This document shows, piece after piece, positions 8,051 through 12,377 of a stretch of 32,000 bases of DNA; position 1 is the stretch's first letter, and every line of letters begins with the position of its first letter. The stretch comes from Candidatus Thorarchaeota archaeon (GTDB lineage Archaea; Asgardarchaeota; Thorarchaeia; Thorarchaeales; Thorarchaeaceae), in NCBI GenBank assembly GCA_008080745.1, contig SHMX01000004.1, forward strand, positions 270,001-302,000, given 5' to 3'. Below the pieces are notes generated by a model that was not told the DNA's origin, ran no database searches, and worked only from the letters and a program-made list of their open reading frames with translations. The translations under genes were made by a program, and so were the position numbers.

Positions 8051-9192
8051 AGACCATGATATGGAAATATTATCTCCTCAATTTTCCTAATTTGTCGATC
8101 TAAATCAAGAGTGACGTCTTCACGAGAATAATACATCTGTTCTACGTCATTATTGTCTCGCATTCCTTCTGGGCATCGGTCATAACCCATATTGTTACAG
8201 GCTAAGATGAAGTCATCTGAGAATTTCTGTGGGACTTCTTCATCCAGCATCAAAGCAAGGAATAATGTCCACAATCTAGCAACATTGACAGGATGATAGC
8301 CTCCTCCGCCAACTGCTAACCAACCAATATCACAATATTCTCCTGTAAGGTCTTTCATTTTATTGATTACAGTTTCGTATGCATGAGAAGTGTAGGCAAG
8401 ATGTGCTAAAGGATCCATGAAATGTCCATCTACACCAAGTTGAGTGACTAAAAGATTTGGCCTGAATGATTCGAATAAAGGAACAATTACTTCATTTAGG
8501 ATTCGAACCAGTTCTATGGTTCCTGCTCCAGGAATAACAGGTACATTAACAGAATATCCTACTCCCTCAGCTCCACCCGCTTCGTATACATTTCCTGTTC
8601 CTGGAAATAGTGTCTTCCCAGACTGATGAACTGAGATAGTCATAACATCCTTAGATCTGTAGAACGCATTTTGTACCCCATCGCCATGATGGGCATCAAT
8701 ATCCAAGTAGAGCACTTTGCATTTTTTCTTGTTGAGCAATTGCATTATTGCGATGGCAATATCATTGAATATACAGAAGCCGGAAGCCCGACTTCGTTGG
8801 GCATGATGGAGACCACCCGAGATACAGAAAGCGTTTGAAGCTCCTGCCATTATTTCTTTCATTCCTTCAAGAGTTGCACCAACATATCGTGCTGCAGCAT
8901 CATATATTCGAGGAAAGATGGGATTATCTGGAGTACCCAACCCGTATCTAAGGCTTGCACATGCCTGTTTTCCACAACTGATCACTGCATCTATGAACTC
9001 TGGAGTATGAAAGAGTTCAAGGTCTTGACGAGTGGCTACTTTGGGTTCAATCTGTTTTACTTTATCTAGAAGACCCAACTGCTTTGAGAGCTCGTAGGTT
9101 AATTTCAGTCTATCAGGCTTCAGTGGATGATCTTTCTTAAACTCGTACTGAAGTAGTGCATCGGAATATGGGTAGACTAACTTGCCTCTCAT
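8047..9192 (-). CDS. Zn-dependent deacetylase, class I HDAC / AcuC-like
   Basis: HPLKP.R, GGLHHA, SGFCIFND, DIDAHHGDG, QLGVDGHFMDP and GGGGY are all intact. Start reassigned to ATG 9192 (MRGKLVYPYS), with a TATAAG box at 9225-9220. Confidence 0.9.
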   Translation of the reverse strand: MRGKLVYPYSDALLQYEFKKDHPLKPDRLKLTYELSKQLGLLDKVKQIEPKVATRQDLELFHTPEFIDAVISCGKQACASLRYGLGTPDNPIFPRIYDAAARYVGATLEGMKEIMAGASNAFCISGGLHHAQRSRASGFCIFNDIAIAIMQLLNKKKCKVLYLDIDAHHGDGVQNAFYRSKDVMTISVHQSGKTLFPGTGNVYEAGGAEGVGYSVNVPVIPGAGTIELVRILNEVIVPLFESFRPNLLVTQLGVDGHFMDPLAHLAYTSHAYETVINKMKDLTGEYCDIGWLAVGGGGYHPVNVARLWTLFLALMLDEEVPQKFSDDFILACNNMGYDRCPEGMRDNNDVEQMYYSREDVTLDLDRQIRKIEEIIFPYHGL

Positions 9193-9277
9193 AGTATTAT
9201 CATCTTCTGCATAATCGCGCTTATACCTTATGGCTATGGCTGTCTTACTGTCATAGAGGATAAGAATCAGCACTTGT

Positions 9278-9396
9278 CGTGGTGCGCCCAGGACCCTCAA
9301 CGGAAAGGGTGTTCCTGGGTCGAGATTTGCCATTAGTATCAATGGATTCTCGATCCGATTTATGCCAAAATGGCTCGGACAATATATAGCACCACG
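9278..9396. ncRNA. Candidate structured RNA: four-way junction (8-bp closing helix enclosing three stem-loops)
   Basis: P1 9278-9285/9389-9396. P2 9287-9297/9306-9319. P3 9320-9334/9341-9353. P4 9354-9367/9371-9379. The helices abut with 0-1 nt linkers. No family recognised and the strand is ambiguous. Confidence 0.45.
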
Positions 9397-9501
9397 TAAT
9401 GTTAGGGAAATGGCAGTTACCGCTAACACTAACGCATATAATGCGCATGAACTAATATGAATGGTGTGATTTAAGGATTCGGAATTGTATTCCCAATCCG
9501 G

Positions 9502-11061
9502 TCAATACCATTCAATCGTGCCCGGAGGTTTTGATGTGACATCATAAACCACACGATTAATTCCTTTCACTTGATTTGCAATTCGAGAAGCGATTCTCAG
9601 TAACACATCCCAGTCCAATCTACTAACAGATGCAGTCATAGCATCTGAACTTTCGACTACCCTGATTACAGCGGCTTGGTCGTAAGTTCGTTCATCTCCC
9701 ATAACCCCAACTGATCTTACTGGTAACAGAACACAGAACGATTGCCATATGCTAGGATATGATGAGTCCTTTTCTAACTCCTCTTGGAGTATTCTATCAG
9801 CGTTCCGAAGGATCTCCAATTGTTCTTTTGTAACAGGACCTCCTATTCTGATTGCGAGAGATGGTCCTGGGAAGGGTTGCCTGTGAATCATCTTTGATGG
9901 GATATTGAGTTTATCTCCTACCTTTCTCACTTCATCCTTGTAGAGGTCTTTAAGAGGCTCTACCAAACTCATCTTCATCCAATCAGGTAATCGGACATTG
10001 TGGTGACTCTTGATAACAGAGGTTTCTTTACCAGTGGCAGCACTTTCGACACGATCCGGATAGATTGTTCCTTGTCCTAGAAAGGCAAACTCACCATACT
10101 CTTTCTCAAGTTCTTTTGCTTTTCTTTCGAAAACTCGAATGAAGGTTTCAGCTATGATTTTGCGTTTCTCCTCAGGGTCGATTACTCCCTGAAGCCCCTC
10201 AAGGAACTCATCCGATGCATCCACTGTAACAAAATGCTCGAAACCCATATCTTCAAAGGCCTTCTCCACTTCTTCTCGTTCTTGATATCGAAGTAGTCCA
10301 TTGTCAACAAAAACGCAATAGAGCCTTTCGCCAATTGCCTGTTTAATGAGATATGATGCAACTGTCGAGTCAACACCCCCGCTAGTGCCCATCAGAACTC
10401 GTCCATCTCCTACAGTTTGTTTGATTTCTTCTAATATAATGTCTATCTCCTTTCCAGGACTCCATTTTTCCTTATACTGACATATATCTCGTAGAAACGA
10501 GTTGAGAATTGACATACCATTCGGTGTATGGGTAACTTCAGGATGGAATTGGACACCGAAAATCAGGTTGTCTTTACTGGCAAAAGATGCTATGTGATCA
10601 TTACCGCTTATAGCTAATGGGATAAGGCTCTCAGGCAACTCAGAAACTTCATCACTATGGCTCATCCAGACGTTCTGTGTCTTGTCCAGACCAGATAAGA
10701 GAGGAGTGTCACTAACTACCTGAATCTTCATCTCTCCGTATTCAGGATTTCCTCCAGGTGCAAGGTTCGCTCCACAAGCGTAGGCTAGAATTTGGTGACC
10801 AAAACAAATACCTAGTACAGGAATTTTTTCCTTTCTAATCATCTCAAAATTCTTATTGAAAGGAGGACCAATATCTTGCTCTGTGGCGGTACGTGGGCCA
10901 CCTGAGAGAATAATCCCTCTTACACCCGCTAAGATTTCATCATTCAGAACTGTGTCTTTTGTGATAATTTCAGCGTATACTCCTAATTCTCTACATCTTC
11001 GAGCAATTAGATGAGTATATTGACCACCATAATCCATCACAAGGGTTTTTTCATCAGTCAA
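9502..11061 (-). CDS. guaA: GMP synthase (glutamine-hydrolysing), single-chain GATase + ATP-pyrophosphatase
   Basis: DYGGQY, LGICFGHQ, QFHPEV, SGGVDS, IKSHHN, RQPFPGPSLAIR, VGVMGDERTY, KPPGTIEW. TTG start after GAGGA. Confidence 0.97.
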   Translation of the reverse strand: MTDEKTLVMDYGGQYTHLIARRCRELGVYAEIITKDTVLNDEILAGVRGIILSGGPRTATEQDIGPPFNKNFEMIRKEKIPVLGICFGHQILAYACGANLAPGGNPEYGEMKIQVVSDTPLLSGLDKTQNVWMSHSDEVSELPESLIPLAISGNDHIASFASKDNLIFGVQFHPEVTHTPNGMSILNSFLRDICQYKEKWSPGKEIDIILEEIKQTVGDGRVLMGTSGGVDSTVASYLIKQAIGERLYCVFVDNGLLRYQEREEVEKAFEDMGFEHFVTVDASDEFLEGLQGVIDPEEKRKIIAETFIRVFERKAKELEKEYGEFAFLGQGTIYPDRVESAATGKETSVIKSHHNVRLPDWMKMSLVEPLKDLYKDEVRKVGDKLNIPSKMIHRQPFPGPSLAIRIGGPVTKEQLEILRNADRILQEELEKDSSYPSIWQSFCVLLPVRSVGVMGDERTYDQAAVIRVVESSDAMTASVSRLDWDVLLRIASRIANQVKGINRVVYDVTSKPPGTIEWY

Positions 11062-11120: not shown

Positions 11121-12377
11121 TTATGTGATGTCTTTAGCAATATCTGAACGAAATCTGACGGCACCAGTAATTTTCTGAGCAGAATCATAAGCTATCTTTC
11201 TAGCTTCAGAGATGGAGGCTCCCTTTCCAAGAACACCAAGTGACCGACTTCCTGTGGTGAAGACTTGTTCGTCCTTCTGATATACAGATGCATAATAGAG
11301 TTCTGCTTGAATGCCTTCTTCAATTGTGATTGGCTTATCCTTTTGCACACTTTTACCTGGATAGCCCTCAGGTACAACATATACACATACCGTAGCTTGC
11401 TCTCTAAACTCAGGTTTAATCAGTTTTCCATCAATTATACTAAGACAGATGTCGTCCATCGAGGTATCCAGTATTGATAACACATTCATAGCTTCAGGGT
11501 CTCCAAATCGAGCATTGAATTCAATAACTTTAGGTCCCTTGTTGGTCTTCATAAATTGACCATAAAGAATCCCTTTGTAATCATACCTCGTCCTCTTTTT
11601 GATTTCCTTAACCACAGAAGTCATGACTTTCTTTGCTTCTTCTAGGTCATTATCACTGACATATGCTAGATTATGGTCACTCCTAGAATAGGACCCCATT
11701 GAGCCTGTGTTGGGCCCTTCATCATTGTCATAGGCTCTCTTGTAGTCTCTAACAAGAGGCATGATCTCAATGTTCTTTCCATCTACAAACGATTGCACTG
11801 TGAATTCTGTACCAACCAGTTTTTCTTCTAGGATAACAATCCCATGGTTACCGATTTCTTCGGTAGCATAGGCTTCGAGTTCTTCTCTTGAATGCAAATG
11901 TTCTCCAAAGATCTTGACGCCTTTTCCTCCAGTCAACCCATCAGGTTTGACTACTATATTATCTACACCTACTTTTTCCTCAAAGTGTTGTATTCCATCA
12001 AGGCTACGAACTATGGCAAATTCTGGATTTGCACGTTTGGCTGCTTTTTGGATAATTTCACGAGCAAATGACTTACTAACCTCGATCTTTGCACATCTCT
12101 GAATTGGACCGATACTAGGCACTCCCTGTCCCTCTAGATAATCTGCTATCCCCACTGATAAAGGTCCTTCTGGTCCGATCACTGCATAATCAAATCCTGA
12201 CAGAGGGGGAAGTTTTCTATAATCCATGAGAGTATTAATTGTTGTAGATGTTGCAAGGGCGGCAATACCTGGATTCAATTTATCCATATGTGCGTGCAGC
12301 TCAACGTCTGCTCTGGTCAATGCCGATGCAATTGCATGTTCTCTAGCTCCATTTCCAATGAGAAGAACTTTACTCAC
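11121..12377 (-). CDS. purD: Phosphoribosylamine--glycine ligase
   Basis: [58 protein letters not shown]. Confidence 0.96.

Follow-up and report, generated by a model that had tools for sequence, protein, structure and literature searches.

A probable structured RNA between guaA and a deacetylase gene in one Thorarchaeota genus, with a candidate antisense target

The spacer between guaA and a deacetylase gene in this Thorarchaeota genome raises the question of whether it encodes a structured RNA and, if so, from which strand and to what end. An earlier note, made from the letters of the DNA, had put forward a four-way junction in this spacer as a candidate novel non-coding RNA. The window, by which we mean the whole stretch of DNA that was analysed (32,000 nucleotides; G000:C4:270001-302000), belongs to a 3.16-Mb, 98%-complete assembly. 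The features of the locus are collected in Table 1. Of the 17 Thorarchaeota loci whose upstream sequence was long enough to read, 10 keep guaA and the deacetylase gene adjacent (that of the genus studied here and nine others). A 460-aa deacetylase open reading frame listed as starting at GTG 9429, which would cover the RNA element, was rejected as an artefact because of the lengths of the homologues (mostly 381-382 aa, range 379-402, in the 120 matches listed), the equivalent ATG start in the congener, and the frame breaks of the extension in the congener. Because the deacetylase TATA box lies about 27 nt ahead of the ATG, the deacetylase mRNA should have no leader or almost none. The box CATAAGGTATAAGCG is common to this genome, the congener and a locus of another genus without the RNA element (L016). 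As an observation in its own right, this promoter box is kept across Thorarchaeota genera (window 9193-9232; L016:2431-2500).

Table 1. Features of the guaA-deacetylase locus, of the proposed RNA and of its candidate target. Positions are those of the window unless a contig or locus is given.
Feature	Position	Strand	Remarks
purD	11121-12377	minus	
guaA (GMP synthase)	9502-11061	minus	Upstream neighbour; last gene in the purine-synthesis cluster; Pfam GATase and GMP_synt_C
guaA-deacetylase spacer	9193-9501		309 nt
Promoter-like BRE/TATA box AATCCTTAAAT	9469-9479	minus	Inside a 17-nt stretch identical in the congener; proposed from likeness to the 5S rRNA and RNase P RNA boxes
Proposed whole RNA, about 180 nt	9262-9446	minus	Hairpin A, hairpin B, four-way junction, short 3' tail; both ends inferred
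Hairpin A, GCGCAU-UAU-AUGCGU	9432-9446	minus	GCGC-CUUAU-GCGC in the congener; one G-U to G-C change
Hairpin B	9397-9431	minus	9-bp stem UAGUGUUAG/CUAACAUUA; 17-nt loop at 9406-9422; directly adjoins P1; one G-U to A-U change
Invariant 19-nt segment CUGCCAUUUCCCUAACAUU	9398-9416	minus	Proposed antisense seed; identical in both species
P1 closing helix, 5' strand CGUGGUGC	9389-9396	minus	Identical in the congener
Junction hairpin 1 (P4 of the earlier note)	~9353-9380	minus	Lower stem, 5-nt bulge on the 3' side, GCCA/UGGC
Junction hairpin 2 (P3 of the earlier note)	~9320-9353	minus	Lower stem covaries; apical part differs in the congener
Junction hairpin 3 (P2 of the earlier note)	9287-9319	minus	7-bp lower stem, bulge, upper stem, conserved UCCGUU loop
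P1 closing helix, 3' strand GCACCACG	9278-9285	minus	Followed by a conserved ACA
TATA box of the deacetylase gene, AAGGTATAAG / CATAAGGTATAAGCG	9220-9229	minus	Outside the RNA; 27 nt before the ATG at 9192
Deacetylase gene (Hist_deacetyl/AcuC-type), 381 aa	8047-9192	minus	ATG at 9192; Pfam E = 3.6e-88
69-aa Lys/Glu-rich small basic protein gene	G000:C3:439342-439551 (L092:1043-1252, L093:1501-1710)		Candidate target; on another contig than the RNA

The junction described in the earlier note was recovered from both the sequence and the MFE fold: cgtggtgc (9278-9285) pairs with gcaccacg (9389-9396), and three abutting hairpins lie inside. The four-way junction was the MFE fold on both strands, with energies of -52.7 kcal/mol on the plus strand (z = -5.33) and -54.4 kcal/mol on the minus strand (z = -5.85) when compared with dinucleotide shuffles. 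None of 200 such shuffles folded as stably, and the fold is thus much better than chance. For the 185-nt unit spanning 9262-9446, read on the minus strand, the fold z-score was -6.0, and for the congener's copy of the RNA it was -4.35.

The sole relative found to carry the element is a genome of the same genus (G001, record WJMJ01000002.1), in which it occupies the same position between guaA and the deacetylase gene. Comparison of the orthologous spacers, which the earlier note had named as a check, found the junction conserved and its pairs kept, with about 86% identity between the two species in the element core. At four-fold degenerate sites of the two flanking genes, identity between these species is only 33-36%, and neutral sites are therefore saturated; first and second codon positions in the same genes are 90-91% identical, and the value for the element lies near that. 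When the two copies were compared on their consensus structure, 12 of 102 positions in paired columns differed, and 33 of 70 unpaired positions differed or were gapped. Each of the 51 consensus pairs is canonical in this species and in the congener, including all 10 that changed, and the one clear double change is G-C to A-U in junction hairpin 2 (the middle hairpin); as covariation, these counts come from two sequences that are kin to each other and are without statistical power. Judged from the alignment, this pair-preserving pattern is the one predicted for a structured RNA. Because indels of 1-2 nt relative to the congener break every frame, no reading frame is conserved. A coding reading, in the form of a 65-aa open reading frame, was rejected on account of these frame-breaking indels, and the frame has no Pfam hit. 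The fold, the conservation and the Rfam result given below are all in accord with the candidate put forward in the earlier note, and we hold it to be very probable that the element is a real, selected, minus-strand structured non-coding RNA.

The two copies also bear on the strand. Nine of the 10 pair changes are of the G-U type when read on the minus strand, and would be A.C mismatches if read on the plus strand. The two-sequence consensus fold reached -57.05 kcal/mol on the minus strand (the gene sense) versus -44.65 kcal/mol on the plus strand. On this comparison, the RNA is assigned to the minus strand, in the sense of guaA and the deacetylase gene. With the RNA on the minus strand, the plus-strand word matches to U1 snRNA that the earlier note had listed fall away.

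As shown in Table 1, the proposed RNA consists of two small hairpins followed by the junction and a tail, and its 3' end was placed near 9262, where the block of high identity shared with the congener stops. The earlier note had also listed further hairpins flanking the junction. The one at about 9397-9431 (hairpin B) is conserved and forms part of the element; those at 9235-9257 and 9475-9499 are present here, but their sequences are not conserved in the congener. Among the single-stranded parts of the RNA, the 17-nt loop of hairpin B is the best conserved. The nucleotides of the hairpin B loop have a predicted unpaired probability of about 1, and the invariant 19-mer CUGCCAUUUCCCUAACAUU is made up of part of this loop together with the 3' strand of the hairpin. 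Within the junction, the congener shows C-G to U-G and A-U to G-U changes in hairpin 1, which give valid pairs on the minus strand only, and A-U to G-U and C-G to U-G changes in hairpin 3, both of which are tolerated by the minus strand alone. In hairpin 2, in addition to the G-C to A-U change in the lower stem, the apical stem of the congener is re-formed from other bases and is still a helix. The tail after P1 (ACAAGUGCUGAUUCUUAUCC here, ACAUGGUGCUAAUUAUGAAG in the congener) is poorly conserved.

Several smaller observations were made on these parts. The sequence CAUU(A) just 5' of P1 (9397-9401) has two possible, mutually exclusive partners, the 5' strand of hairpin B (9427-9431) and an AGUG located 3' of P1 (9271-9274). 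The opening of hairpin B, for example upon target binding, would let P1 gain 4 bp. For the base of P1, a bulge-helix-bulge processing site was considered and rejected, as the 1x3 internal loop there is unlike that motif. Between the RNA and the deacetylase promoter, a small hairpin is found in both species (window 9235-9257; L006:2440-2460); the sequences are unrelated, with CUAUG...CAUAG here and CUAAAC...GUUUGG in the congener. This hairpin might be a marker of the 3' end of the RNA.

The promoter-like box AATCCTTAAAT resembles the boxes of other non-coding RNAs in the same genome, namely AACCTTTAAAT, located 24 nt before the 5' end of 5S rRNA, and AATCCTTTATAC, located 25 nt before that of RNase P RNA. 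A genome-wide count of the promoter-like motif gave few sites. By analogy, a start at 24-25-nt spacing would fall at about 9446-9443, at the base of hairpin A, and the 5' end of the RNA was placed there because of this spacing. The unit thus appears to follow the order promoter-like box, hairpin A, hairpin B and junction (about 9446-9262), and by the same analogy transcription of the RNA is probably driven by a BRE/TATA-like box of its own that lies just past guaA. The sequence after P1 holds no clear oligo-T terminator.

The distribution of the RNA was found to be narrow. A covariance model built from the two copies (R1) matched in 2 of 86 family genomes, both from one genus; the same model had no match in 5 further Thorarchaeota genomes and, with filters off, gave no further homologue in 17 deacetylase-upstream loci. 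Searches with blastn in 40 relatives returned the congener's copy only, and no counterpart of the RNA was seen in two metagenome pattern scans, one IMG/VR scan and blastn against phages. In a search of 5.8 billion protein sequences, no third member of the genus was present among the matches listed, the next-closest deacetylase being 73% identical. No extra copies were found in the own genome down to word size 7, and the RNA is single-copy. In the nine other Thorarchaeota loci with guaA directly upstream of the deacetylase gene, the spacer measures 52-79 nt in 7 and 144 nt and 411 nt in the remaining two; relative to the spacer of other genera, the RNA sits in about 230 inserted nucleotides. 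By these sequence comparisons, the RNA is a genus-specific insertion and a new family restricted to one Thorarchaeota genus, which is known from two metagenome-assembled genomes only. As a separate observation, the site carries another insertion in one Thorarchaeota genome, where the 411-nt spacer (L008:2092-2499) contains an opposite-strand open frame of about 135 aa.

Comparison with known RNA families was carried out on both copies. There was no Rfam match at gathering score in the whole window, and at E <= 10 only chance hits were obtained over 9100-9600 on both strands and in the congener's copy, the sub-threshold hits being mir-67 (14.5 bits) and IS605-orfB-II (20.9 bits). The Infernal/Rfam check named in the earlier note thus yielded no known family at gathering score in the window and no convincing one at E <= 10 in either copy. 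The same note had stated that the element lacks the diagnostic motifs of tRNA, 5S rRNA, SRP helix 8 and RNase P, and it is indeed none of these RNAs: ARAGORN called no tRNA in the window, there was no Rfam tRNA hit at E <= 10, and the other three RNAs are found elsewhere in the genome (5S rRNA at C2:514232, 62.7 bits; SRP RNA at C2:303444, 94.1 bits; RNase P RNA at C12:4769, 163 bits). We observed in passing that the SRP RNA (G000:C2:303444-303753) scores just below the Rfam gathering score of 96.5, so that annotation at the gathering threshold would miss it.

With tRNA and tRNA-like cloverleaves, the element shares a closing helix and three hairpins on 0-1-nt linkers; it differs from them in its 8-bp closing helix, its 6-8-nt first linker, its long bulged arms, and the lack of D-loop and T-loop signatures. 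The two species have wholly different apical sequences in the middle hairpin, and the position equivalent to U33 is not a U in the congener. One feature of H/ACA RNAs is present, in that the two species share GCACCACG-ACA, in which the ACA directly follows the basal stem on its 3' side. Nevertheless, an archaeal H/ACA guide RNA was rejected, as the basal stem opens into a four-way junction rather than a pseudouridylation pocket and no Rfam H/ACA family matched. A C/D box guide RNA was likewise rejected, there being no C box (RUGAUGA) and the CUGA after P1 being CUAA in the congener. None of the arms carries a K-turn (G.A/A.G) signature. A Ro60/TROVE protein (PF05731) was not found in the 98%-complete genome, in which positive controls were detected, and this argues against a Y RNA.

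A candidate target came from hairpin B. A pattern search with the complement of the hairpin B loop gave a site in both genomes that overlaps the start codon of an orthologous gene for a 69-aa protein. This gene is flanked by genes for an MFS transporter and a PHP-domain protein and has a long AT-rich spacer upstream. The protein has no Pfam or Atlas match and is conserved in 6 of the 16 Thorarchaeaceae genera searched; the GGGAA abutting the AUG of its gene is found in the RNA-bearing genus only. The start region of the gene can fold into a hairpin that encloses the AUG. The predicted duplex of CUGCCAUUUCCCUAACAUU with this gene comprises 18 bp with one bulged U, extends over mRNA positions -16 to +7, and includes the GGAG-to-AUG interval. 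Among 17,970 candidate start windows, the best duplex of CUGCCAUUUCCCUAACAUU was that with the 69-aa gene, at -27.6 kcal/mol, followed by a runner-up at -22.8 kcal/mol. None of 89 shuffled 19-mers reached -27.6 kcal/mol (null best: mean -22.5, sd 1.55, minimum -26.6), a comparison to be read with the fact that the 19-nt query was picked post hoc, after a first hit with a 13-mer. With a 29-nt query, the runners-up were close in energy (-29.7 and -29.1); one is inside a fumarase-like gene and the other belongs to a doubtful open reading frame, and they are unlikely to be true starts.

Cofolding of the full RNA with the mRNA also gave a predicted intermolecular duplex in both species. With the opening of hairpin B paid for, the net gain was -19.2 kcal/mol in the own genome and -11.5 kcal/mol in the congener. 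A second contact was predicted between GUUAG(C) of the RNA and CUAAC of the mRNA at +19 to +25. Moreover, the antisense of 9391-9416 aligned to positions -19 to +7 of the target with a score of 30 (null 19.2 +/- 2.4); on this alignment, hairpin B resembles the target start region copied in inverted orientation. An accessible and conserved segment is thus predicted to pair with an initiation region beyond chance, as in antisense RNAs, the query for this having been chosen post hoc. The conservation of the seed and of the start region in both species could have separate causes, because a ribosome-binding region is conserved anyway. If the target mRNA is nearly leaderless, only a partial duplex (about -5 to +7, plus the downstream contact) could form. 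In genus g5, a search for a comparable antisense partner to the start region of the orthologous small-protein gene returned only the gene itself.

Taken together, these data make a genus-specific trans-acting small RNA the most likely reading of the element. More specifically, we give a probability of roughly 0.4 to its being a trans-acting antisense regulator of the 69-aa gene. In such a mechanism, the open 17-nt loop of hairpin B would first contact the start-codon region of the mRNA for the 69-aa protein. From there the pairing would extend into the stem of hairpin B, to give the 18 bp over -16 to +7 together with the second contact at +19 to +25. The resulting duplex would cover the Shine-Dalgarno-to-AUG region and would block translation or alter the stability of the mRNA, and the four-way junction might serve as a stable body or a protein-binding platform. 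A simple antisense role leaves the need for a large, well-conserved four-way junction unexplained. As to origin, we tentatively propose that hairpin B arose by inverted duplication of the target start region (-19 to +7) and was then fused to a new four-way-junction body, to produce a lineage-specific Asgard riboregulator. If this were true, the RNA and the 69-aa gene would be the first small RNA and target to be predicted as a pair in Asgard archaea, and some RNA chaperone may use the junction as a binding platform.

In another reading, the element is a structured RNA that stands alone and functions through the junction itself, as a protein scaffold or as a tRNA-like or cloverleaf-like RNP component, and the complementarity to the 69-aa gene is coincidental. 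The junction is the largest and best-conserved part of the RNA: P1, the UCCGUU loop and the lower stems do not vary, and hairpin 2 changes its apical sequence yet stays helical there, which is typical of RNAs selected for shape. However, no partner protein is indicated, Ro60/TROVE being absent from the genome; the sequence carries no K-turn, Sm-site, C/D or H/ACA pocket signature; and a function confined to the junction explains neither the 19 invariant nucleotides of hairpin B nor the outlying duplex with the start region. We regard a stand-alone RNA of this kind as rather doubtful. That the element is instead a structured 3' UTR of guaA, or an RNA processed from it, which stabilises or terminates the purine-operon transcript and has no promoter of its own, seems unlikely. 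Such a 3' UTR would fit the shared strand, the start of the element about 30 nt past the guaA stop codon, the near-continuous conservation from 9485 to 9262 (which takes in the 22 nt that separate the putative start from the TATA-like box), and the lack of an obvious terminator in the sequence between guaA and the element; it fits poorly with the 7 of 9 other syntenic Thorarchaeota loci whose 52-79-nt spacers lack such a structure, and with a conserved box much like the non-coding RNA promoters of the same genome. Given that a small RNA derived from a 3' UTR could still act in trans, this explanation overlaps with the antisense reading.

On the other side of the element, its position upstream of the deacetylase gene and on the same strand might indicate a long riboswitch-like regulatory leader of that gene, and four-way junctions are known in some riboswitches. 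No riboswitch model matched at E <= 10. As the earlier note had argued, the deacetylase gene has its own TATA box downstream of the RNA (9229-9220); this ancestral box is kept 27 nt before the ATG, is conserved across genera, and occurs also in a genus that does not carry the element. The 45 nt that separate this box from the RNA are only 45-50% conserved. The retention of the box and the poor conservation of these 45 nt indicate that the RNA is not the deacetylase leader, and we hold that reading to be very improbable. Equally little weight is given to an inert relic of a mobile element, such as a MITE or the remnant of an IS605-type guide RNA, to which the insertion of the element relative to other genera and the weak IS605-orfB-II hit might point. 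This hit (E = 0.26) falls in the congener's copy only, is absent from that of the own genome, lies on the strand opposite to the RNA, and is far under the gathering score of 88 bits. That the RNA is single-copy even at word size 7, with no phage or IMG/VR matches, makes a relic unlikely, and strong purifying selection with pair-preserving changes would be unexpected of one. The speculation in the earlier note that the element is a U1-snRNA-like RNA, an Asgard forerunner of spliceosomal RNA, is given almost no credence. Like U1 snRNA (RF00003), the RNA has a four-way junction of similar size (a closing helix and three stem-loops) followed by a single-stranded stretch and a hairpin, and this resemblance is topological only. 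In contrast to U1 snRNA, it gave no hit to the U1 model at E <= 10, either over 9100-9600 on both strands or in the congener's copy; the U1-type 5' single-stranded sequence ACUUACCUG is absent from the minus strand, a splice-site-pairing sequence is absent on either strand, and so is an Sm site (RAUUUUGR) after the junction. The caveat attached to that speculation, that ACUUAC, AUUGCAC and the Sm site are lacking, was correct, and the matching words lie on the wrong strand. Restriction to one genus, with 2 of the 86 family genomes matched, is moreover unlike an ancestral spliceosomal RNA.

For the antisense reading, parallels exist in known systems. The plasmid kissing-loop antisense RNAs CopA/CopT and RNA I/RNA II are transcribed from the strand opposite to their targets. 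The RNA described here resembles them in that hairpin B mirrors a hairpin that can be formed by the target start region, and loop-loop contact followed by helix spreading would therefore be a natural pathway; it differs in being encoded on another contig than its candidate target and in carrying a large extra domain. An archaeal precedent is provided by sRNA162 of Methanosarcina mazei, which masks a ribosome-binding site (PMC3510493). Both sRNA162 and the RNA described here are intergenic, lineage-restricted and structured, measure 100-250 nt, and have an accessible segment complementary to the start region of a distant mRNA (PMC3510493). Masking of translation initiation is likewise common to the two, being here the proposed effect only. 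The two RNAs have no homology in sequence or structure; the seed lies here in a hairpin loop and not in a linker, and the body here is a four-way junction. A literature search on the topic found no work on regulatory small RNAs of Asgard archaea. These archaea are the closest known prokaryotic relatives of eukaryotes. A selected RNA with a fold, a strand and a testable target would offer an entry point for asking whether Asgard archaea have riboregulators that act by base pairing, and with which helper proteins. The finding has no bearing on the origin of the spliceosome, and, being restricted to one genus, it is of limited reach.

One further observation concerns the tRNA genes of the same genome. 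When the whole G000 genome was searched with ARAGORN, only 39 tRNAs were called, many of them with introns, and Trp, Asn and several other isoacceptors were not detected. There were two tRNA-SeC candidates (C1:403018-403135 and C5:28105-28195), and odd calls included a tRNA-Lys and a 'stop' tRNA (tta), whose introns measure 1283 nt and 109 nt, respectively. This pattern of calls suggests that the genome has non-canonical tRNA genes that standard finders miss.
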